51,373 nt of DNA. Source: an uncultured Alphaproteobacteria bacterium (GTDB lineage Bacteria; Pseudomonadota; Alphaproteobacteria; Rs-D84). The notes under the pieces are model-generated. The model saw only the letters and a list, made by a program, of their open reading frames with translations, did no database searches and had not been told where the DNA came from. Below, piece by piece: positions 5,653 to 17,183 of the stretch; the stretch's first letter is position 1, and every line of letters starts with the position of its first letter. A program made the position numbers and the translations under genes. The stretch lies in contig CAJONJ010000035.1 in assembly GCA_905236005.1 (NCBI GenBank), positions 1 through 51,373 on the forward strand, read 5' to 3'.

Positions 5653-6660
5653 TTATTTTAATTTATTTTTCATATCTGATTGTTTTTGTGTGTAATACTT
5701 TCTTGTGTGTCCAAATGTCAAATGTTTCAATATAGTAGATTTTATATATTGAAACTTATAGAATTTTAGCTTTCTTAGATTAAAATCAGAACAATTTTCA
5801 CTTTCTATAAAAAACCGAAAATCTATATCAAAATATTTTTTATATGGTGACTGTAATAATTTATATTTCTTAATAAATTGAATTAAAACTTCAGCAATAG
5901 AATTTCGTTGTTCTTCTGAAAAATTGACACTATACATTCTGTAAAAAGGTTCTACTCTTATAAAAGATAAAGCATGTAGTTTGTTTCTATCAATAACTTT
6001 GTATTTGTCATAAAAATTATTTAAAATATCAAACCATTTTTTTATATCTTTTGTTAATTGAACAGGATCTATTGTGTGTTCACTAGAATCTTTATGTTGT
6101 CTATAAAAATAATACGGATGTGGAACAAAACTTACATTATCAGTTAATGCTAGCAATTGATGTGAAAATAGACCGTCTTCACAAATTTGCAAGTGTTCGG
6201 GGTATCTTACATAAGGGTATTTATCTAAAAAACTTTTTTTGATACCGATAGCCATTGTTGGTAATGCACCAAGAACTTCTCTTTTTCTTTGATACCAATT
6301 ATAATTACCTATTACCAAAATATCTGGAAAGTTTTTTTGTTCTATATCTGCAACAATTTTTTCTACATAATCCGGCTCTATTGTGTCATCAGAATCTACA
6401 AAAATTATATAGTCACCTGTTGTTGCAGATATACCATCATTTCTAGCCATAGACACACCATCATTTTCTTTATCTATAATCTTTATCCTGCTATCTTGCT
6501 TTCCGTAATCATTTAATATATTCAACGAATTATCCTTAGAACCATCATTAATGCATATCACCTCTATATTTTTATAAGTTTGACACATAACACTATCAAT
6601 GCATTCGTGTAAATATTTTTCCATGTTATATACTGGAATTATTATAGAAACTTTAAGCAT
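5653..6660 (-). CDS. GT2 family glycosyltransferase
   Basis: IIPVYN, INDGSKD, FVDSDD, ED motif. Confidence 0.88.
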   Translation of the reverse strand: MLKVSIIIPVYNMEKYLHECIDSVMCQTYKNIEVICINDGSKDNSLNILNDYGKQDSRIKIIDKENDGVSMARNDGISATTGDYIIFVDSDDTIEPDYVEKIVADIEQKNFPDILVIGNYNWYQRKREVLGALPTMAIGIKKSFLDKYPYVRYPEHLQICEDGLFSHQLLALTDNVSFVPHPYYFYRQHKDSSEHTIDPVQLTKDIKKWFDILNNFYDKYKVIDRNKLHALSFIRVEPFYRMYSVNFSEEQRNSIAEVLIQFIKKYKLLQSPYKKYFDIDFRFFIESENCSDFNLRKLKFYKFQYIKSTILKHLTFGHTRKYYTQKQSDMKNKLK

Positions 6661-7588
6661 TATGCTTCCTTTTTATTTTTATATTTACACCACAAAGTGT
6701 GATTACTTTATACTTGCCATCTGATGAATTGGTTAAACAAAATATTTTCTGTAATACATGTTCCAGCTTTTTCATAAAACATATGTGTTCCACAGGATAT
6801 TTATTATGTTTCAACATATATATTTTTTCATCATCCCACCAAGTACTCTGATTCCAATGAATTGCCACGGTTTTCTCTGTAAAAGATTTATTTTGAAATA
6901 CACACCATGTCGGACAAAAATATTCACAAGGATAAATTGTTATTGTTTTAGATTTATCTTGCCATATACATTCGTGTGTATACAAATCATAATCATCTAA
7001 TTGTTTAGTTGGAACTAATGGATCAAAATATTTACCTGCTCTAGATTCTTGGCTTTTTGTTTTGAAAGATAGTCTCGTAAAACCATATTGTTCTTGTAAC
7101 AGTTTTTTCATTATCACATTGGCAATAAAATTATCTATAGAAAAGATATCTTCAGATTCGTATATTTTCATACATTCTTTAAATACTTTATGTCCAGCTA
7201 CACCACCCATAACAGCGGGCTCTGGAATGTTTTCTCCAAACAAAATATCGCCTTCGATACTAATAAAAAAATCGTTTTCTAAAAATTTATCAAAATTGCT
7301 TACAACTTCTACATCAGTATCTAAATATATACCACCATGTTTATATAAAGCATAATGTCTAATATAATCAGAAACAAAAGCCCATAATTTTAATTCATAC
7401 GCACGTTTTACAAACGGAGATTTGCTGATAATTTCTTGAAATTCTGGCATTTTATCATGCCATAACATTAATTTGTAATCTGGACAATGTTTCAACCATG
7501 AATTTATACACATCCGTACTTGTGATTTTTTGTCTTTTTGCCAAATATTAACGTCATCATAAAAATAATGTATTATTTTTGGTATCAC
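6653..7588 (-). CDS. GT32 (DXD, Och1-like) glycosyltransferase
   Basis: IPKIIHY, AFVSDYIR, GGIYLDTDVE; GTG start with GGGGG(T)G RBS. Confidence 0.85.
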   Translation of the reverse strand: MIPKIIHYFYDDVNIWQKDKKSQVRMCINSWLKHCPDYKLMLWHDKMPEFQEIISKSPFVKRAYELKLWAFVSDYIRHYALYKHGGIYLDTDVEVVSNFDKFLENDFFISIEGDILFGENIPEPAVMGGVAGHKVFKECMKIYESEDIFSIDNFIANVIMKKLLQEQYGFTRLSFKTKSQESRAGKYFDPLVPTKQLDDYDLYTHECIWQDKSKTITIYPCEYFCPTWCVFQNKSFTEKTVAIHWNQSTWWDDEKIYMLKHNKYPVEHICFMKKLEHVLQKIFCLTNSSDGKYKVITLCGVNIKIKRKHNA

Positions 7589-7605
7589 TATTTCACCCCC
7601 CGTTT

Positions 7606-7974
7606 TTATGAATTACGACCATACATATCTTCAAACCGAACAATATCTGTTTCATCTAATATATCGCCCATCTGAATTTCAACAATTTCAACAACTTCGT
7701 TTGTTAAATTTTCTAGTCTATGTCTGGTTTGTACAAGAATATCAATTGACTGTCCGAAACCATACGTCTTTGTTATATCCCCAACGGTTATTGTTGGATT
7801 CCCTTTGACAACAGTCCAATGTTCATCACGATGCAAATGTGTTTGTAACGACAATGATTGGTGCGGATTGACCGTAATAACCTTTGCAATATACTTATCA
7901 CCAACCGTAATACATTTCCATGTCCCCCACGGACGTGTTCCGATTTCATTCAGGTTGTATTTTATTTCGCTCAT
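7606..7974 (-). CDS. cupin, mannose-6-phosphate isomerase type II (ManC C-terminal domain)
   Basis: RPWG, SLSLQTHLHRDEHWTVV, HRLEN, DIVRFEDMYGR. Confidence 0.88.
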   Translation of the reverse strand: MSEIKYNLNEIGTRPWGTWKCITVGDKYIAKVITVNPHQSLSLQTHLHRDEHWTVVKGNPTITVGDITKTYGFGQSIDILVQTRHRLENLTNEVVEIVEIQMGDILDETDIVRFEDMYGRNS

Positions 7975-8114
7975 TTCTAACCTTTTATCAGTCGAAGCTA
8001 TGATTTTGTGTTTTGTTAACAGGTTTTCAGTTAATATTAAACCAATCCTTAGACCATAGTTTTCTCTACATATGATTCCATGCCATCGTATTGCAAAAGC
8101 ACGAACAAATCAAG

Positions 8115-9230
8115 TTAAAACTTATTGATGCGTTCTATCTTAAATTGAATTCCAAATAAATAATATTTAGCATAATTTAAAAAATATTTTATTTTATAAA
8201 CAGGTAATCCAATAACGTAAACCGTTTTAGAGTCAATGTCGTTTAGTATTGATAATATACCAAGCACATATTTTTTTACATGTTTAAACTTATTATTAGC
8301 AATCATATCCATAATTCGATTATTGTAGCCCCCTAAATCTTGCGGAATGTAATTTTTCTTTACAAAATCGTATGCTAATTTATTTATATCATTTTGATAA
8401 TTTTTACCTGCGTGCCAATGGGCATAATTAAAATATGTAACGAATATAGATGACCAAAAATATTTTGAATTATTGTCATATTTTTTATGCTTTTTCATAT
8501 AATCAAAACAAGCAATTGCTATTTTTAAATGATCAATCGCAGAATTATCACATTTTTTTAATGTTTGATTCATAATGGATCCAACCCTGCGACGATAATT
8601 ATACAATTGTTTGTCTATAAATGTTATATTTTTCGCCCATAACATGTACATTTTAAAAAAATATGCATCTTCATATTTCAATCCAACGGGATATTCCAAT
8701 TGATGCTCTTGTAATTTCGATTTTTTGTAAATCTTGTTCCATACATTAACATTGCAAGCATCTATAATGTCATTTGTCACATTATGAGTACCAGTATATT
8801 TAATGCTATAATTTGTAATATCACTTGTCCTAAATTCTTCATCTGCCTCATAAATAACATTTGTGCCACACATTGCAATATCTGAACCAGATTGTTCAAT
8901 CGCATTAAACATTTCTTGACACATTGTTGGATCATAGAAATCATCACTGTCACAGAACATCAAATATGGTGCTGAACTGTGTTCAATACCGGTGTTTCTA
9001 GAAGCAGACAGTCCAGAATTTTTTTTGTGTCGCACAATTTTTATACGATTGTCGGTTTTGGCATATTTCTCTACAATAGCCATAGAATTATCTGTACCAC
9101 AATCATCAACAACTATAATTTCAATGTCAGAAAAGGTTTGATTAACAACAGATCTAATACATTCGTCTACATAGGATTCAACATTATATACGGGTATAAC
9201 AATAGAAATCTTTGGGCTTTTTTTCTGCAT
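8115..9230 (-). CDS. GT2 family glycosyltransferase
   Basis: VIPVYNVE, VDDCGTD, FCDSDD, VWNKIY, YED. Confidence 0.88.
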   Translation of the reverse strand: MQKKSPKISIVIPVYNVESYVDECIRSVVNQTFSDIEIIVVDDCGTDNSMAIVEKYAKTDNRIKIVRHKKNSGLSASRNTGIEHSSAPYLMFCDSDDFYDPTMCQEMFNAIEQSGSDIAMCGTNVIYEADEEFRTSDITNYSIKYTGTHNVTNDIIDACNVNVWNKIYKKSKLQEHQLEYPVGLKYEDAYFFKMYMLWAKNITFIDKQLYNYRRRVGSIMNQTLKKCDNSAIDHLKIAIACFDYMKKHKKYDNNSKYFWSSIFVTYFNYAHWHAGKNYQNDINKLAYDFVKKNYIPQDLGGYNNRIMDMIANNKFKHVKKYVLGILSILNDIDSKTVYVIGLPVYKIKYFLNYAKYYLFGIQFKIERINKF

Positions 9231-9404: not shown

Positions 9405-9644
9405 TTAGTTATCTTTATCATCAGTGATGTATTTAAAGAAATCTTGGGGACTGGAATTAGTAGCTGCCAGTATTTTAGCAATACTGTTAGTTGATGGCCA
9501 GCGTGGTTGTTCGTATTTAGAAAACCGTTTGCTTTTATTAAAAGTCGTTGGGTCCAGACCACTGCATTTTGCCAAACCAGAACAAGACATATTATGTTCT
9601 TTGGCAAATAATTCAATAGCCCGCCAGATTTGATTGTGATTCAT
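9405..9644 (-). CDS. XRE/Cro-type HTH regulator (alphaproteobacterial GLDPTTFNKSKR family) without S24 peptidase domain
   Basis: IWRAI...SGLAK.SGLDPTTFNKSKR...RWPST.SIAKIL; AAGGAG RBS before ATG 9644; 79 aa. Confidence 0.85.
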   Translation of the reverse strand: MNHNQIWRAIELFAKEHNMSCSGLAKCSGLDPTTFNKSKRFSKYEQPRWPSTNSIAKILAATNSSPQDFFKYITDDKDN

Positions 9645-9669
9645 GTTTTTTCTCCTTTGGTTATACATA

Positions 9670-9774
9670 ACGAATATTATCATAAGATAGAATTAAATCA
9701 AACAATACAATCATAAATAGAAAACGTTCCTATAATATACAGGATTTTTATCATTTTTGTAGGAATTTGAACAT
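9670..9774. promoter_or_regulatory. four related 14-bp boxes, putative autoregulatory operators
   Basis: ACGAATATTATCAT 9670, AGGAACGTTTTCTA (minus, 9718-9731), AGGATTTTTATCAT 9741, AGGAATTTGAACAT 9761. Confidence 0.45.
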
Positions 9775-9792
9775 AGTGATAATTCAAAATAC

Positions 9793-9820
9793 TTGAAATA
9801 GGATTTTTTTGTCCTATACT
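9793..9820 (+). promoter_or_regulatory. sigma70 promoter for T-box/aspS transcript
   Basis: TTGAAA-16 nt-TATACT ending 13 nt before stem I. Confidence 0.7.
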
Positions 9821-9833
9821 ACAAAGTAGCAAA

Positions 9834-10102
9834 GCCGATAATCCACTAACAATGGGGAGGCGGAAGAAGAACGGTGTTGGTTTAATCCGCACTTACTAGA
9901 ACTTCCCGGGATTGCCCGTCACAGCAAAAGACTCTTTTATGGTATGGCGAATCCAGCGAGAGTTAAAAAGGTAACATTGGTGACAATGTTACAAAACAAG
10001 GTGGCACCACGTTGGTGTTATGTCTATCTGAAAACGATATGCATAATTATTTAACGTCCTTGTGTTCTTATTATAAACAATAATAACAAAACACAAAGGA
10101 GG
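9834..10102 (+). ncRNA. translational T-box riboswitch, ultrashort stem I, specifier AAC (Asn)
   Basis: Stem I 9834-9861; stem II GGAAG/CTTCC 9862-9906; IIA/B pseudoknot 9907-9927; stem III 9971-9992; ACAAGG-TGGCACC-ACGTT pairing with AACGT-CCTTGT; sequestrator covering the GGAGG RBS. Confidence 0.92.
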
Positions 10103-10107
10103 TTAAA

Positions 10108-11424
10108 ATGTCTAAAATAAGAACGCATATCGCCGAAATTCCACAAAAAATTGGCGAAATAATAACTGTCAAAGGTCACGTGCAAACATTGCGGTTGCAA
10201 TCCTGTATTGCTTTCATTGTTTTGCGTGAAATAACAGGAACTGTTCAATGTGTGGTTGAAAAGGGAACACCAGCATTTGAAACAGTTAAACAAATCACAA
10301 CTGAATCTGTTATATCAGTAACAGGAAAAGCTGTAAAAACCAAAAGTACAGAATCAGGATTTGAAATTCAGGTTTCAGAGATAAAAATAATATCTTTGGC
10401 AGAATCAACCCCGATACCTGTTACAACCAAAGGCAGCACCGAAGTAACGTCAGAAAAATCACAAGATTGGCGATTTTTATCGTTACGTTCACCACGCAGT
10501 GCAACAATAATGCGTGCGTTTTCTGCTATGATGTCAGGATATCAAGAATACTTGTCAAAACAAGGTTTTATTGGTATCCAGACACCCAAAATTATGGCAA
10601 CACCGTCTGAATCACGTGCTGAATTATTCAAAATAGAATATTTTGGACAAACAGCATATCTTGCACAATCACCACAATTGTTTAAACAAATGGCAATAGC
10701 CAGTGGTTTGGAACGGGTGTTTGAAATAGCACCTGCATTCAGAGCAGATAAATCTTTTACAACACGTCACGCAACAGAATTTACTTCTTTTGACGGTGAA
10801 ATGGCATACATTGAAAGTTTTGAAGAAGTAATGACAGAATTGGAAAAAACAATCGGTTATATGCTGACATCTATCAAGAAAGCATGTGGTAAAGAAATAG
10901 AGAAATATTTTGGTATTTCAGAATTTCAATTAAAAAAACCGATTCCACGTATCACTATGGCACGTGCAAAAGAAATATTGCGTGAAATGGGGTGTGCTTC
11001 AGAACAACCAGATATTACTACCGCAGAAGAGAAAGCTTTGGGTGATTATGTCAAAGAACATTTTGGTTCAGATTTTGTGTATATCACTGAATGGCCATGG
11101 GAAACACGTCCGTTTTATCACAAGAAAGGCACAGGCGAACATGGTGAACCAATATCTGTATCGGCTGACTTGTTATACAAAGGTGTTGAAATTGTGACAT
11201 GTGCTCAACGTGAAGAATCTTATGCTAAACTGTGTGAACAATTAAAAGAAAAAGGTTTGCACCAAGAAGGTTTGCAATGGTACCTAGATTGTTTCCGTTA
11301 TGGCATGCCGCCACATGGTGGATGGGGAATGGGGGGTGCACGTGTTATAAAACAACTGTTGGAATTGCCAACAATTCGTGAAGCTGTGTTTTTATTCCGT
11401 GGCCCATCACGTTTAATGCCTTAA
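10108..11424 (+). CDS. aspS: aspartate--tRNA ligase, archaeal/Deinococcus AspRS2 type, probably non-discriminating
   Basis: OB-fold N-term, AYLAQSPQLFKQ, FRAD..TTRHATEF, PPHGGWGMG; 438 aa with no GAD insertion. Confidence 0.9.
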   Translation: MSKIRTHIAEIPQKIGEIITVKGHVQTLRLQSCIAFIVLREITGTVQCVVEKGTPAFETVKQITTESVISVTGKAVKTKSTESGFEIQVSEIKIISLAESTPIPVTTKGSTEVTSEKSQDWRFLSLRSPRSATIMRAFSAMMSGYQEYLSKQGFIGIQTPKIMATPSESRAELFKIEYFGQTAYLAQSPQLFKQMAIASGLERVFEIAPAFRADKSFTTRHATEFTSFDGEMAYIESFEEVMTELEKTIGYMLTSIKKACGKEIEKYFGISEFQLKKPIPRITMARAKEILREMGCASEQPDITTAEEKALGDYVKEHFGSDFVYITEWPWETRPFYHKKGTGEHGEPISVSADLLYKGVEIVTCAQREESYAKLCEQLKEKGLHQEGLQWYLDCFRYGMPPHGGWGMGGARVIKQLLELPTIREAVFLFRGPSRLMP

Positions 11425-11429
11425 AAATA

Positions 11430-11457
11430 AAAAACCGTCCGTTTGGGCGGTTTTTTA
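11430..11457 (+). terminator. intrinsic terminator after aspS
   Basis: AAAAACCGTCC-GTTT-GGGCGGTTTTTT. Confidence 0.8.
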
Positions 11458-11514
11458 ATACTTGCAGTTTGGAATACTTATGGTTTTATCTTGCAAAAAA
11501 GAGGTAAAATCAAC

Positions 11515-12681
11515 ATGACACAAAAATCTATCACAGAACATGAAAATGCATTATTTGTATATGAAACAGAATTGATTAAATTGGGACGAAAATTGTATAA
11601 ACAACAACAAATGTTAACCGAAATAATAAAACAATTCTCGAATCAGATAAATATAAATTCAACAATAAATTGTACAGTGCCAACCATAGGAGATATGTTA
11701 AACCGTTTTGTTATCAAAAATGGCAAAAACAAAGAAGAAACTTTGCGAAAATACAAGGTGATATGCAAATATATGTATGCAGTTGGGTTAAAATCCAAAG
11801 ATAAATATTCAAAATTTCATAATGAATCTATGTTATTAAAAATTACAGATATAATTACAAATCGTGCTGATATCCAAGGTGACCAAAAAATTCGTCATAT
11901 GCGATGGATTATCAGTCTGGTAAAATTTGCAGTTGTTGCATATCCTGATTTATACAAACCAGATGTTTTGATTGGATTGCCAAATATCAAAAAAACACCT
12001 AAAAGTGCAAAACATCCGCATATTCCATACAATGATGAACAACTGAAAAAGATATTTAATCCCAGATATCAATTTTTTCATAAAAATCCTGATATATTTT
12101 GGGGATGTTTAATTGCATTATTTACAGGTTCCAGAAAAAATGCTGTGTTCACATTACAATACAAAGATATTATTCAACAAGACGGGATTTGGTGCATAAA
12201 TTTCATAGAAGATTACCCCGGTATAAAAAAATTAAAGACAGAAGATTCAGAACGTGTGGTGCCTATTCATTCAACACTGATAAAAATGGGCTTTCTGGAT
12301 TATATCAATCGGAAACCGCATATATCAGACACAGATTTTGTGTTTAAAACAACGTGTCTGACCCCAAAAGGATGTTTAAATTGCCATATGTCCAGTAATT
12401 TTTTTAGATTTTTGAAACAAATAGGAATAAAACATTCTAATTCCGAAAGATATGATTTTCACTCTTTTCGCAAAAATGCAAATATAGCAATGGAACAAAG
12501 TGGTATTATACGTACTTATATAGATAAAATCATTGGTTGGATGAGCAGGGGCAGTGAAGGTGAACGTTCGTATTCAAATTATACAATCACACAAATATCA
12601 CAACAATTAGAATTATTGCATTACGATTGTTTAAAAAATGAATTCAGACAATGGAAAAAAATAATGGCTGAACTGTCTTGA
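11515..12681 (+). CDS. tyrosine recombinase/integrase
   Basis: LFTGSR, KLKT...R.VPIH, FHSFR, IIGW, SY catalytic set; GAGGT RBS before ATG 11515. Confidence 0.85.
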   Translation: MTQKSITEHENALFVYETELIKLGRKLYKQQQMLTEIIKQFSNQININSTINCTVPTIGDMLNRFVIKNGKNKEETLRKYKVICKYMYAVGLKSKDKYSKFHNESMLLKITDIITNRADIQGDQKIRHMRWIISLVKFAVVAYPDLYKPDVLIGLPNIKKTPKSAKHPHIPYNDEQLKKIFNPRYQFFHKNPDIFWGCLIALFTGSRKNAVFTLQYKDIIQQDGIWCINFIEDYPGIKKLKTEDSERVVPIHSTLIKMGFLDYINRKPHISDTDFVFKTTCLTPKGCLNCHMSSNFFRFLKQIGIKHSNSERYDFHSFRKNANIAMEQSGIIRTYIDKIIGWMSRGSEGERSYSNYTITQISQQLELLHYDCLKNEFRQWKKIMAELS

Positions 12682-13780: not shown

Positions 13781-14012
13781 CATTTTACAGAAATATTTTA
13801 TGCATAAACAGTCCGGGTTGCAAACAAGCCCGTAAAGTTGTGTCCAAAAACGTTCAAAATGTTCGTCGTGTGATGGGGTTAAATTACTTTGAAAATAATA
13901 CTATCTTGGACGAATATAAAATAAAATACGAAAAATAAAATGAGATTAAACATACCACAATACAAAGGTCTTGACAATTGATTGTAGTGGTGTACACTGA
14001 AATCAGTTGGAT

Positions 14013-15014
14013 ATGAATAGTGGATGTATAATTTCTACCAAAGATGCAGTGCCGTCTTTTGTAATGTCGGACGGTGGCGGGTGTTCCTTGGTCGTTTATC
14101 CACGTATACATGCGTTTAGTTTAGATTTGTCTGTTCTTTGTGGTATTATAAAGCACGGTGCGTTCGGTTTTTCTTTAACAGATTTTCCTATTTATGTAAA
14201 TACACGGATAAATTCAAACGGCAAAGATCGTATTGTAAGTTGTGGTTGCAATGTATCGGTCTTAGATTATGATTTTAATTTAGACTTATTAAGAAAATTT
14301 ATAGGTGTAGAAGATTTTTATGATATAGAGATAAAAGTCAGTAAAAATGTGCGTGAACATATTGGACTTGGCTGTTCTACACAGATTTATAGTGCTGTGC
14401 TGTTGTGTTGTGCTAAGAATTCTGGAATAAATTTGAATATTCAAGATTTGTTTTCGCTTGGGGTTGGTCACAGTTCTACTCTCGGTTTAAATCTAGTATT
14501 TAATCCTGGTTATATAATAGAAACGGGAGTTGTGTTTGAAAACAAAGTGGAAACAGTGTCAAATTGTATTTATAAATTCAATGATTTTCCTTTCTATTCT
14601 ATTGTCGGAATACCAAAAACAGCAAACAGTATATCTGGTAGTTTAGAAAATGATTTCTGGGATAATTTATTACCAGATAAACCAGAAGAATCTTTGAAAA
14701 TTGCTTATCAAGTATTTCAAAATATGGTGCCAGGTATAGTCACAAAAAATTTTGATCAATTTATTAGTTCGTTGTCAAATATAGTTTCTATGGGGACTAA
14801 ACCGTTTGAAACCAGAATACAACCCCAACGAACTATAAATCTATTACAATACTTAAAACAAGAATTTGGATTTGCTGCGGTTAGCTCTATGGGGCCTTCT
14901 GTCTACACTTTTTCAGATAAAAATCCTAGGAATCTTGTGGAAAAGTTAAATGAATATTTTGCAGATTTCAATTTTATCATTATAAAACCAAAGGTTGAGC
15001 ATGCGACAATATAA
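14013..15014 (+). CDS. beta-RFAP synthase-like GHMP-fold protein (C-glycoside synthase family)
   Basis: PRIHAFSLDL, GAFGFSL, HIGLGCSTQ, LGVGHSSTLG...GYIIETG, SSMGPSVY match the family motifs; start 14007 (TTG) also possible. Confidence 0.78.
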   Translation: MNSGCIISTKDAVPSFVMSDGGGCSLVVYPRIHAFSLDLSVLCGIIKHGAFGFSLTDFPIYVNTRINSNGKDRIVSCGCNVSVLDYDFNLDLLRKFIGVEDFYDIEIKVSKNVREHIGLGCSTQIYSAVLLCCAKNSGINLNIQDLFSLGVGHSSTLGLNLVFNPGYIIETGVVFENKVETVSNCIYKFNDFPFYSIVGIPKTANSISGSLENDFWDNLLPDKPEESLKIAYQVFQNMVPGIVTKNFDQFISSLSNIVSMGTKPFETRIQPQRTINLLQYLKQEFGFAAVSSMGPSVYTFSDKNPRNLVEKLNEYFADFNFIIIKPKVEHATI

Positions 15015-16143
15015 ATTTGATACAAAAATTATAGCTGCTTGGGGTTGTTTAGGAAAAACCACATTTGCAAAAAAATATCCTAGTATAGCACTAGATTTAG
15101 AATCTGTGCAGTACAATTATAAGTATGATTTTAGAGAGTTAACCGATGAAATAGCAAAATTCAACCCATGCTTAGGACAATTTATCCATGAATTATATCC
15201 GTATAATTATGTAGGAGCAATATTATCTAATTTAGGAAGATATAGATACATTTTTATTACTTTAGCTAGAGAAATACTGCGTGAACTAGATAATTTGGGC
15301 TTGCCATATACAATAGTTTACCCATCTGTAACAAGAAAAGAGAAAATATTAAAAGATGCAGAAAAACGTGGTAATACCAAAGTGTTTTTGAATGTTATCA
15401 ATGAAATTTTGAGTTCTAATGAGGAATATGCTAGTTTAACTCAGCATTTCAATTATCAAAACTTTGATATTATACGTGATGATGAATATATTGAAGATTA
15501 TTTGAAACGTAAACATAATTTTATGTGTTCAGATGTTTTCTTTATACATGGAGCGCCAGGAGCAGGTAAGGATACGTTATCACAAAAATATATTCAAGAG
15601 CATCCTTTGTGTGGTCACATATCTATGGGGGACATTTATAGACAAATAGGAACAAATACTTTTGTGTCTCAATTTAGAGATGTATTATTTGAAGATGTAA
15701 AAAATAATAGACTTTCTAAGGCTGAAACCACGGGTGGGGTTTTGTTTGAAGCTGTTGCACATAAGTTATTTGATACATATTTGATATCTGGGTTTCCACA
15801 TCATGTATCAGAAATAGATTTTTTTAAAACACATTCTGTGGAATATAACATAAATACATCTAATATAGTGTTTTTACGTGTTTCTAGAAATCAAGCTATC
15901 CAAAGGATGATTAATAGGGGGCTCCGAGTGCTAGAAAATCTTAAAATGTATCAAAATGAAACCGTATCAGATTATTATGCTAGAAGATATCAAGAATACG
16001 TTGCACAACAGCCAACGTTATTAAATACACTTCAAAAATTAACAGATATTAAATATATCAATGCTGATAACGAATTTAGTATAGTATATGATGATTTCTG
16101 TAAAGTTGTGGATTTAAGTAATAAATTACAAAAGTTGAGATAA
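15001..16143 (+). CDS. tandem two-domain P-loop nucleotide kinase (C-terminal adenylate-kinase-like)
   Basis: AAWGCLGKTT..ALDLES and HGAPGAGKDT..HISMGDIYR..SGFP. Confidence 0.75.
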   Translation: MRQYKFDTKIIAAWGCLGKTTFAKKYPSIALDLESVQYNYKYDFRELTDEIAKFNPCLGQFIHELYPYNYVGAILSNLGRYRYIFITLAREILRELDNLGLPYTIVYPSVTRKEKILKDAEKRGNTKVFLNVINEILSSNEEYASLTQHFNYQNFDIIRDDEYIEDYLKRKHNFMCSDVFFIHGAPGAGKDTLSQKYIQEHPLCGHISMGDIYRQIGTNTFVSQFRDVLFEDVKNNRLSKAETTGGVLFEAVAHKLFDTYLISGFPHHVSEIDFFKTHSVEYNINTSNIVFLRVSRNQAIQRMINRGLRVLENLKMYQNETVSDYYARRYQEYVAQQPTLLNTLQKLTDIKYINADNEFSIVYDDFCKVVDLSNKLQKLR

Positions 16144-17183
16144 TGTCAGTAGATGTATCCATTATAATTGCTAATTATAACAATGAAAAATACATAGAAG
16201 ATTGTTTGCGTTCTGTTCAACAACAAAATTTTAATAATCTGGAAATTGTGATAGTTGATGATGGTAGCACAGATGATTCTGTCAAAAAAATCAAGCAGTT
16301 TATACATAAGGATTCCAGATTTGTTTTGGTTCAACTTGAAAAAAACCGGGGTGTCAGTGTTGCCAGAAACACAGGCTTACAAAGGGCTAAGGGAAAATAT
16401 ATAACGTTTTTAGATTCTGACGATTGTATGACCCCGGATGCCATAAGTATTTTATATGATATTGCATGTAAACATGATGCTGATGCTGTAAAAGCACAAA
16501 GAATTAAAGTATTAGAAAATTTTAAGTTAGATAAAATACCTAAAAATAAACATGCTATATACAAAGAAACGGTCGTCTTAAACCCGGCTAAACAAATGGA
16601 TGCATGGTTTTCTGATCCAATGTTTGTATGGTTATATTTGTGTAAAAAATCTATATTATTAAAACAAAAATTTATAAAAAATATGCGTCCTTGTGAAGAT
16701 GTAAATTTTATTATAAAATTAATTCCGTATATTAATAAGTTAATATTAGTTGATTATATATCGGTATTTTACAGATTGTCCGATAATAGTATTATGCAAA
16801 ATTATGTTGTGTCAAACAAGACAATCAAATCCAAGTTAATTTCTTTTATAGATATCAATAATTTTTTTGATGCAAACAAAAACGACTGTTCTGTTAATTA
16901 TCAATATATATCAAATAAGTTAATGTGTGATTTATTATTAATAGATATTTTTTATATACCATTAATAGAAAGACAAAATTTATTAAGTGTTGGAAGTAAA
17001 ATTATGCAATTCATATGCAGAAAATATTCTATATACAAATATTATAACATGCGTACTCGTCTAGCAATATGGGCTTTTAAGAATAAATGGTATAAATTAG
17101 CACGTTTCTGGCTAGACAACGATTATTTTAGCAAATATACCAGATTAAAAAAGGAGAATATATATGAGGACACAAACTGTTAG
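16143..17183 (+). CDS. GT2 family glycosyltransferase
   Basis: IIANYN, VDDGSTD, FLDSDD, CED; TAATG coupling to upstream gene. Confidence 0.85.
   Translation: MSVDVSIIIANYNNEKYIEDCLRSVQQQNFNNLEIVIVDDGSTDDSVKKIKQFIHKDSRFVLVQLEKNRGVSVARNTGLQRAKGKYITFLDSDDCMTPDAISILYDIACKHDADAVKAQRIKVLENFKLDKIPKNKHAIYKETVVLNPAKQMDAWFSDPMFVWLYLCKKSILLKQKFIKNMRPCEDVNFIIKLIPYINKLILVDYISVFYRLSDNSIMQNYVVSNKTIKSKLISFIDINNFFDANKNDCSVNYQYISNKLMCDLLLIDIFYIPLIERQNLLSVGSKIMQFICRKYSIYKYYNMRTRLAIWAFKNKWYKLARFWLDNDYFSKYTRLKKENIYEDTNC

Follow-up and report, generated by a model that had tools for sequence, protein, structure and literature searches.

The subject of this report is an RNA leader at positions 9829-10107 of contig CAJONJ010000035.1 (assembly GCA_905236005.1), a stretch of 51,373 nucleotides that is called the window below. 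The leader sits between a divergent helix-turn-helix (HTH) gene and a 438-residue open reading frame (ORF) at 10108-11424, which encodes a second aspartyl-tRNA synthetase of archaeal type, named AspRS2. It is considered likely that the leader is a tRNA-Asn-sensing T-box that gates AspRS2, most probably at the initiation of translation. The window is one contig (C35) of a metagenome-assembled genome (MAG; G000 in our set) of 881 kb in 46 contigs, with 35% GC and 79% completeness. As the initial annotation, made from the letters alone, had supposed, the host is an alphaproteobacterium: its genus, Candidatus Enterousia, is placed in Alphaproteobacteria in the NCBI taxonomy. Related MAG contigs of Candidatus Enterousia and Alphaproteobacteria derive from ruminant, horse, and other guts. 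According to the accessible part of a paper on this group (PMC12306168), Enterousia belongs to the GTDB order Rs-D84 and has genomes under ~1 Mb that lack amino-acid biosynthesis; that part mentions neither T-boxes nor riboswitches.

The features of the locus are as follows.

9405-9683, minus strand: HTH gene (PF13443), divergently oriented
9793-9820, plus strand: promoter-like TTGAAA-16-TATACT, consensus match 10/12; a start near 9827-9830 would follow
9834-9861, plus strand: ultrashort stem I, GCC-GAUAA-UCCA-[CUAACAA]-UGGG-GA-GGC, with base helix GCC/GGC, kink-turn (K-turn)-like GAUAA...GGAG, and a short upper helix
9846-9852, plus strand: specifier loop CUAACAA, 7 nt, with AAC (Asn) at 9848-9850 followed by a conserved purine, A
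9862-9906, plus strand: stem II, GGAAG...CUUCC, with an S-turn-type internal loop GAAGAAC / UAGAAC
From 9907, plus strand: IIA/B element CGGGAUUGCCCGUCACAGCAA, consisting of the hairpin CGGG-AUUG-CCCG and the UCACAGCAA tail, 9907-9928
9911-9914 with 9925-9928, plus strand: IIB pseudoknot between hairpin loop and tail, its outermost pair unpaired in the window (A-A)
9930-9964, plus strand: extra conserved hairpin between pseudoknot and stem III, outside the Rfam consensus and an insertion in the Rfam alignment
9971-9992, plus strand: stem III, perfect 9 bp with loop GUGA, aligned to stem III of RF00230
9996-10013, plus strand: T-box ACAAGG-UGGCACC-ACGUU, the antisequestrator 5' strand, with the 7-nt bulge UGGCACC (UGGC at 10002-10005)
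10017-10047, plus strand: variable hairpin atop helix A2 of the discriminator; the sequence varies and the hairpin is kept in three sample folds
10053-10063, plus strand: antisequestrator 3' strand AACGUCCUUGU (AACGU-CCUUGU), common to antisequestrator and sequestrator
10050-10107, plus strand: sequestrator helix (OFF), the minimum-free-energy fold, pairing the Shine-Dalgarno (SD) sequence AAGGAGG at 10096-10102
10108-11424, plus strand: AspRS2, an archaeal-type, non-discriminating-type AspRS of 438 residues (NF003483, 456.6 bits, cut-off 353)

Direct reading of the sequence found every motif listed in the initial annotation at the coordinates given there. This holds for the letters of stem I with AAC at 9848-9850, for stem II, the IIA/B pseudoknot, and the perfect stem III, and for the pairing of the T-box with 10053-10063, a strand common to both alternative folds. 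The helix that had been placed over the ribosome-binding site at 10057-10100 is also present; it spans 10050-10107 and covers AAGGAGG, and the ATG start codon at 10108 comes right after it. Stem I is 28 nt long and ends in the 7-nt terminal specifier loop, the distal platform being absent. The hairpin at 10017-10047 on A2 fits the account of translational T-boxes in a review, the available part of which describes A2 insertions as frequent in them. The extra hairpin at 9930-9964 (GACUCUU...GAGAGUU, with an inner UGG/CCA helix), which had not been mentioned before, is nearly invariant. It should be added that promoter-like sites number two in the region against 2.8 expected in shuffled sequences; the site at 9793-9820 stands as a consensus match alone.

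At the Rfam gathering thresholds, only a tRNA-Lys is found in the window. At relaxed thresholds, the T-box model RF00230 matches 9829-10030 end to end, with 22.3 bits and an E-value of 0.0061 (501 bases searched). In this alignment stem II, IIA/B, stem III, and the T-box are matched, and 78 positions of stem I are deleted; this deletion accounts for the shortfall from the gathering score of 93. The gathering score is likewise missed in all of the related genomes that have matches (63 of 101). The comparison with the Rfam model that had been proposed at the outset therefore gave two answers, an alignment from end to end and a score below the gathering threshold. Judged by the Rfam cut-off, the leader falls outside the family; its parts make it a T-box whose stem I is truncated. 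The 297-nt leader folds with a z-score of -4.20, and none of 200 shuffles folds as well.

Covariation was analyzed in 40 distinct homologous leaders (alignment A2), taken from genomes of the genus and from named MAG contigs; two loci that were too divergent (L069 and L101), two that had no upstream DNA (L058 and L060), and exact duplicates were left out. The ON-state structure, including the pseudoknot, was written from the window sequence and then counted on the alignment: 96.0% of the cells are paired, and changes on both sides occur at 11 pairs (47 cells). None of 500 shuffles reached any of these three measures. The survey of related leaders thus bore out the fold first proposed from the window. 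When the structure was slid by one to three columns as a control, 37.7-49.7% of the cells paired, with at most three compensatory pairs; the structure is favored over these slid controls because it derives from one row of the alignment, and the pair-counting measure is the robust one. Chance resemblance was rejected on the basis of conservation plus covariation across the 40 leaders.

The base helix of stem I is GC/CG/CG in all 40 leaders, and two central C-G pairs show little or no variation. The K-turn strand has the canonical form GAUGA...GAG in 16 leaders and the form GAUAA...GAG in 24, the window among these. The base helix of stem II is paired in 39 of 39 rows, and one distal pair is CG in 22 rows, UG in 10, and UA in 8. 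IIA is also paired in 39 of 39 rows, and the pseudoknot pair 9912-9927 shows a compensatory change (UA in 22 rows, CG in 15). The extra hairpin has an invariant base helix of 7 bp and one inner pair that is AU in two rows, against UA in the other 38. In stem III, seven of the nine pairs change on both sides, and 96.4% of the cells pair. Helix A1 does not vary in any of the 40 rows; one A2 pair is AU in 31 and GU in 9. The T-box reads GGUGGCACC in 39 leaders and GGUGGCAUC in one.

Judged from RNA and DNA contigs at 85% likeness, the leader has diverged less than the coding sequence. Nine RNA-labelled runs each hold only 4-6% of the sampled words, and four of them, from four studies, were aligned. 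Contigs from RNA runs, 85-99% alike, cover 9831-10188, one contig of 271 nt spanning 9930-10188; carry-over of DNA into these data is possible. The missing cover upstream of 9831 may merely reflect divergence of the relatives there.

Two mutually exclusive folds are predicted at the 3' side, both using 10053-10063, and the OFF fold is that of minimum free energy. The unconstrained platform fold pairs five or six of the seven SD bases in all 40 leaders. When the antisequestrator was enforced, the SD was freed in 33 of the 40, at a predicted cost of 2.0-13.3 kcal/mol (mean 9.5), a deficit that tRNA binding would have to pay. Only differences and SD counts were used from these energies; the mean of -41.6 kcal/mol over 40 rows is lower than in three sample folds. 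Sixteen apparent mismatches in the sequestrator are a register shift in one clade. On the plus strand of 9600-10200 no terminator-like site was found, in agreement with the initial annotation, and in none of the 40 leaders does a U-run occur in the 3' flank of the OFF helix, which reads AAGGAGGUUAAA(A/G)(A)UG throughout. A transcriptional attenuator was rejected, the terminator being absent, and a leader peptide was rejected as no ORF fits. Action at translation seems to be the reading best supported by the predicted structure.

The strongest alternative is a tRNA-Asn T-box that acts on the yield of transcript, through Rho-dependent termination, access of RNase, or mRNA stability. An untranslated, leader-proximal coding sequence is a classic Rho target. 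In addition, the long and stable OFF helix could alter decay as well, and the RNA contigs give no ends. However, the plus strand has no intrinsic terminator, no U-run follows the helix in any of the 40 leaders, and the helix pairs the SD itself in every one of them; furthermore, the consulted parts of the reviews class the ileS-type relatives, which have the same scaffold, as translational. Control of transcript yield is thus judged unlikely, and gating of translation initiation is preferred.

With regard to specificity, AAC is invariant in the 40 AspRS2 leaders of the genus, and an A follows it in all of them; the loop reads CUAACAA in 39 and CCAACAA in one. The codon on which the assignment to Asn had been built is therefore kept at its place in the loop throughout these 40 homologs. 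The genus also has bacterial-aspS leaders, of which 58 were compared; at the corresponding loop position, which lies 44-50 nt ahead of the T-box, 48 have GAC and 10 have AAC, with no other triplet seen. Five of these leaders (from G000, G003, G021, G047, and G055) were assigned by eye at this distance, in agreement with alignment A4. The flanking loop bases vary, with CU, UU, or CC before NAC and AA, GA, GC, or AC after it, and only NAC is kept. Outside the genus, AspRS2 leaders read GAC: this was seen in G081, where stem II is lacking, in G072, and in a termite-gut MAG (L069). Among bacterial-aspS leaders with stem II and pseudoknot, G061 has AAC, G068 has GAC, and G064 probably has AAC; AAC also precedes the bacterial aspS of G195, an alphaproteobacterium of another family. 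Since the sister leaders read only GAC or AAC, the specifier seems to toggle solely between the Asp and Asn codons, which match the two tRNAs charged by a non-discriminating AspRS. Although one A-to-G transition would give GAC, all 40 AspRS2 leaders of the genus keep AAC, which points to selection for Asn.

Every aspS leader examined carries a UGGC bulge. Six tRNA-Asn(GUU) and five tRNA-Asp(GUC) genes, all ending in G-CCA, were found in five relatives (G003, G035, G041, G048, and G056). Because the tRNA-Asn genes of these relatives have G73 and an encoded CCA, UGGC matches the acceptor end. The initial annotation had held that specifier and bulge differ concordantly from those of ileS leaders, and the two determinants do agree: AAC stands in all 40 leaders and G73 in all six tRNA-Asn genes. 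A run of aragorn on the whole MAG (circular topology, with some wrap-around artefacts) gave no tRNA-Asn or tRNA-Asp in this 79%-complete genome, and a search of the window for a tRNA-Asn fragment gave no match.

The loop might also be read otherwise: tRNA-Asp might bind too, an A-C mismatch being tolerated, or the frame might be shifted to CUA, UAA, ACA, or CAA. It is true that tRNA-Asp shares G73 and is one anticodon base away from tRNA-Asn, that GAC and AAC interchange freely in the sister leaders, and that a T-box with two codons, for Asn and Glu, is reported from C. acetobutylicum in the accessible part of a review. Nevertheless, the bases that would form the other frames vary while NAC is kept, and AAC has not given way to GAC, a single transition away, in any AspRS2 leader of the genus. 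Reading by another tRNA or in another frame is thus considered improbable, more so than control of transcript yield, and tRNA-Asn is retained as the ligand.

AspRS2 itself scores 360.3 bits with TIGR00458, just under the cut-off of 368.4, and contains the Pfam domain tRNA-synt_2 and an OB anticodon-binding domain. Its best matches in the PDB are archaeal AspRS (3nel and 1b8a); the T. thermophilus AspRS2 (1n9w, deposited as non-discriminating) scores 257 bits. From the family model, AspRS2 would be expected to have non-discriminating activity. The gene had been annotated as aspS: it does encode an AspRS, but it is the second, archaeal-type one and not the housekeeping aspS, which lies on another contig.

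A DNA search of 101 relatives placed the leader in 12 of the 61 genus genomes, G000 included, at 76-89% identity. The 12 comprise 11 genus genomes in which an archaeal-type AspRS was found and G021, the contig of which ends inside the leader. Since bacterial AspRS is present in all genus genomes searched and AspRS2 in only 12 of 61, AspRS2 seems to be an accessory enzyme under tRNA-Asn control. For most of the 12, the leader of the bacterial aspS has GAC; AAC occurs in G021, in G041, and in one of the two copies of G012. An Asp sensor on AspRS1 and an Asn sensor on AspRS2 fits most of the 12, not all.

The enzymes of the Asn pathway are consistent with the indirect route, as had been presumed. 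With TIGR00457, asnS was over the cut-off in none of the 61 genus genomes and in two of the 101 genomes overall, both outside the genus; genomes with AspRS2 score ~228-257 bits with this model, as expected for the paralogue. Conversely, gatB was over the cut-off in 94 of 101 genomes, and G000 holds a fragment at a contig end (302.9 bits). Neither asnA nor asnB was found in the five genomes examined, G000 included. As asnS, asnA, and asnB were not found and gatB is present, Asn-tRNA-Asn, and apparently asparagine too, must come via AspRS and GatCAB. This is the only route to Asn-tRNA-Asn found in these genomes.

From these features the following mechanism can be proposed. Without bound uncharged tRNA, the helix at 10050-10107 would form and pair the SD, so that AspRS2 would be poorly translated. 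In the ON state, the anticodon GUU of uncharged tRNA-Asn would pair with AAC at 9848-9850 in the loop of stem I. The S-turn of stem II and the IIA/B pseudoknot might brace this contact of three base pairs, in place of the distal stem I that grips the tRNA elbow. The free G73-C-C-A end would then pair with UGGC at 10002-10005 and stabilize the antisequestrator (9996-10013 with 10053-10063). Because the antisequestrator consumes one strand of the sequestrator, the ribosome-binding site would be freed. With an amino acid attached, the tRNA would be prevented from pairing through its acceptor end. More AspRS2 would yield more Asp-tRNA-Asn, which GatCAB would convert to Asn-tRNA-Asn. Binding of the tRNA, sensing of its charging, and translational action of the leader are all deduced from structure and conservation.

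Further readings, namely a chance resemblance or a decaying or non-functional remnant that came in with an AspRS2 cassette by horizontal transfer, would suit the sub-threshold Rfam score, the patchy distribution of AspRS2 (12 of 61) beside an integrase, and the AspRS2 of G063, from the same order, which has no T-box, but they are very unlikely in view of the invariant core motifs, the compensatory changes across 40 leaders, a leader more conserved than its coding sequence, and the concordance of specifier and bulge.

Several points weigh against the proposed tRNA-Asn sensor. The RF00230 score of 22.3 bits is far below the gathering score. In a K-turn, the first sheared G·A pair requires G; the GAUAA of the window has A at this position. 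No covariation was found in the sequestrator among the 40 leaders, since the helix is nearly invariant, and its support is pairing potential. The constrained ON fold still pairs five SD bases in seven of the 40 leaders. The RNA data are contigs and uninformative on the start or level of the transcript. The match to tRNA rests on the five relatives, as the tRNA-Asn and tRNA-Asp genes were not found in the MAG itself. The element is accessory, because 49 of the 61 genus genomes manage without AspRS2, and the presence of AAC on both AspRS leaders in G012 and G041 blurs a simple division of labor.

The leader is not alone. The same MAG has a second RF00230 match (26.1 bits) on contig C34, before the bacterial-type aspS. 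This leader (L001; 19890-20042, minus strand) has a short stem I, the loop CUGACAA, in which GAC specifies Asp, and the bulge UGGC. Among the other 60 genus genomes, 55 have RF00230 matches at E <= 0.05, nearly all at the bacterial-aspS position. The element is one of a set of short Asp/Asn T-boxes that occur across the lineage, on both AspRS genes. The sister bacterial-aspS leaders (those of Enterousia and of G061, G064, G068, and G195) resemble that of the window in the short stem I, the bulge UGGC, and the absence of a terminator. Their loops have the same format, NN-NAC-purine-N; in G064 and G068 the loop is of 6 nt, N-NAC-A, between flanking G and C. In contrast to the window, the bacterial-aspS leaders of Enterousia lack stem II, pseudoknot, and stem III, have a relay-like platform, and carry GAC in 48 and AAC in 10 of 58.

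These 58 leaders (A4) are minimal T-boxes of ~150 nt. Their platform looks relay-like: GGGUGCC could pair with the GGCACC of the T-box or with a GCGCCC segment, which could otherwise cover the ribosome-binding site AAGGG. The leader of G195, a genome of 1.1 Mb (L300, C51:5417-5581, plus strand), has the loop CAAACAA, stem II, pseudoknot, and UGGC, and matches RF00230 with 55.9 bits. As this leader is in a different family, the short T-box type is not confined to the genus of the window and its near relatives. When 151 alphaproteobacterial genomes were sampled at family level, the only ones with an RF00230 match at E <= 0.001 were G000, one more Enterousia, and G195. The claimed rarity of T-boxes in Proteobacteria agrees with this and with earlier surveys, the consulted parts of which give T-boxes in 2 of 125 proteobacterial genomes, namely on leuA of Geobacter and Pelobacter, both deltaproteobacteria. 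A T-box of another kind was seen in G068, from another Rs-D84 family (L088, C19:3851-4083, minus strand): it has a near-canonical long stem I and UGGU, scores 90.4 bits with RF00230, and precedes an archaeal/eukaryal-type tyrosyl-tRNA synthetase (NF006330, 390.9 bits), with an HTH gene upstream.

The likeness of the scaffold to that of ileS leaders was examined by a scan of metagenome contigs for GAAGAAC, 8-38 nt, UAGAAC, 4 nt, CGGG, 3 nt, and GCCCG. The scan gave at least 116 stretches, and 80 loci were examined among the matches listed. Of these 80 listed loci, 61 have an ultrashort hairpin with AUC in the loop, together with UGGU in 58 and UGGA in one; in the other two, no T-box motif occurs within 260 nt. 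The AUC leaders sampled, three in number, all stand before ileS (TIGR00392, 804-820 bits). In 18 other listed loci stem I is longer or unclear; several have GUC, and the single one sampled precedes valS. The remaining locus is an Enterousia-type leader with CUAACAA and UGGC before a 438-residue AspRS2, so that among the matches listed one of 62 ultrashort leaders is of a non-Ile type, the Enterousia type. As the matches listed are mostly ultrashort AUC/UGGU leaders, with three of three sampled standing before ileS, the scaffold of the leader is assigned to the ileS type.

A covariance model (R1) of the decoding domain, with 95 positions, was built only from 59 metagenomic ileS leaders; alignment A3 leaves out two loci with an intermediate stem I (L196 and L227). 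R1 matches 9834-9930 of the window at full length, with 36.0 bits and an E-value of 7e-7, and matches the sister leaders that bear stem II at 18.7-50.3 bits and none of those without it. This test is partly circular, which also weighs against our reading, because 22 of the 95 positions are the search pattern; outside this pattern lie stem I, the loop format, and the UCACAGC tail. It should be mentioned that stem I of the aspS leader in G068, GAUCCGG-CUGACA-CCGGGGAGC, differs from the common ileS form, GAUCCGG-CCAUCA-CCGGGGAGC, only inside the loop. The match to the ileS class II architecture claimed at the outset is upheld by the scan and, within this circularity, by the full-length R1 match. 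As to the further claim of re-specification from an ileS T-box, the likeness stands, and descent is a possible explanation of it.

Downstream of AspRS2, and around it, lie the following genes.

11443-12681, plus strand: tyrosine-recombinase (phage integrase family) gene, PF00589, 34.2 bits, directly 3' of AspRS2
7606-7974: mannose-6-phosphate isomerase C-terminal domain
8115-9230 and 16143-17183: GT2 family genes
14007-15014: GHMP-kinase-like ORF

AspRS2 and the integrase thus stand amid sugar-nucleotide and glycosyltransferase genes (6653-9230 and 14007-17183), and insertion of the pair into a polysaccharide locus would fit this arrangement. In G048 (L166, C4), the order is leader, AspRS2, the 3' half of a tRNA-Asn gene (from anticodon loop to CCA), and an integrase with an Arm DNA-binding domain, with an ART-PolyVal "polyvalent" protein on the other side; another tRNA-Asn half of this kind was seen in G056 (L168, C17). 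This suggests that AspRS2 and its T-box form a module bordering an island whose integration target is a tRNA-Asn gene. The nearest non-alphaproteobacterial relatives of AspRS2 in the pattern scan are AspRS of Methanomassiliicoccales and Thermoplasmata (37-40% identity; L074-L079), which hints at gut archaea as a possible source of the gene.

A wider picture may be offered tentatively, as a possibility that falls short of an even chance. Gut Alphaproteobacteria with reduced genomes, from Rs-D84 and at least one other family, might carry a radiation of short T-boxes of the ileS class, acquired sideways and re-aimed at tRNA-Asn and tRNA-Asp by little beyond the specifier and one base of the bulge, with GAC/AAC flips ongoing and natural minimal forms included. 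AspRS2 and its T-box may travel on an integrase island that targets a tRNA-Asn gene.

T-boxes with a truncated stem I have so far been studied, according to the available portions of the literature, only as Ile sensors of Actinobacteria. The leaders described here extend T-boxes into Alphaproteobacteria. They would represent a natural re-specification, with joint change of the codon and of the base that pairs with the discriminator, and with sister copies that alternate between Asp and Asn. This offers a ready-made test of the minimal changes that re-aim a T-box, which may be useful to tRNA-sensor engineers. Furthermore, the supply of Asn-tRNA-Asn without AsnRS or asparagine synthetase appears to be tuned by sensing of tRNA-Asn at the AspRS step. 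A review gives the current view as one in which truncation of stem I makes stem II indispensable. The minimal leaders without stem II, if they sense tRNA, would contradict this view; if active, they would revise the minimal requirements of the mechanism, and a 7-nt specifier hairpin and the discriminator would suffice.

Compared with the canonical transcriptional T-box (RF00230), the leader has in common the specifier followed by a purine, stem II, IIA/B, stem III, and a T-box with a UGGN bulge, and differs in lacking 78 stem I positions and the terminator. Deinococcus and Thermus encode a second, non-discriminating AspRS. The AspRS2 of T. thermophilus (1n9w) resembles the present system in being a second archaeal-type AspRS of ~430 residues beside a bacterial-type one; the specificity of the window enzyme, in contrast, is deduced from the family model alone. 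To our knowledge, no T-box is known on the T. thermophilus gene. The Asn/Glu T-box of C. acetobutylicum is said to have a full-length stem I. It follows the same logic as proposed here, since uncharged tRNA-Asn switches on the indirect machinery for Asn-tRNA-Asn (Saad et al. 2013, as cited in a review); that tRNA-Asn can govern the indirect Asn pathway through a T-box is thus already known. The C. acetobutylicum system is described in the review as transcriptional, from a Firmicute, on a transamidation operon, and with two overlapping codons, whereas the leader of the window combines a short stem I with a single codon and lacks a terminator.

Among the closest known systems is the ileS T-box of Actinobacteria (Mycobacterium/Nocardia; "class II" of TBDB). 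The comparison was made directly with the 59 metagenomic ileS leaders, the class descriptions being taken from the consulted parts of reviews. In those parts and in that of the TBDB paper, the short-stem-I class is described as Ile translational T-boxes of Actinobacteria; TBDB derived its class II model from ileS leaders and applied it to Actinobacteria, adding class I matches that have a truncated stem I. A literature search found no description of alphaproteobacterial T-boxes, of Asn/Asp short-stem-I T-boxes, or of Enterousia riboswitches, although the TBDB supplements may list non-Ile members of class II. The initial annotation had known of no non-Ile example of the class: none was found in print, yet the element is one of the lineage-wide Asp/Asn set and not a single case. 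Both types share a stem I that ends in the specifier loop without a distal platform for the tRNA elbow, a K-turn-like region at the base of stem I, the stem II motifs GAAGAAC/UAGAAC, and stem III. They also share the IIA/B pseudoknot CGGG-NNN-GCCCG-U(C/U)ACAGC, the 7-nt T-box bulge, sequestration of the SD rather than a terminator, and an insertion on A2. The leader of the window differs in having AAC instead of AUC, UGGC instead of UGGU, and an archaeal-type AspRS instead of ileS, and its host is a low-GC alphaproteobacterium with a reduced genome, not an actinobacterium. In addition, its 7-nt loop is closed by A-U, its K-turn strand is GAUAA, and it carries the extra hairpin at 9930-9964.

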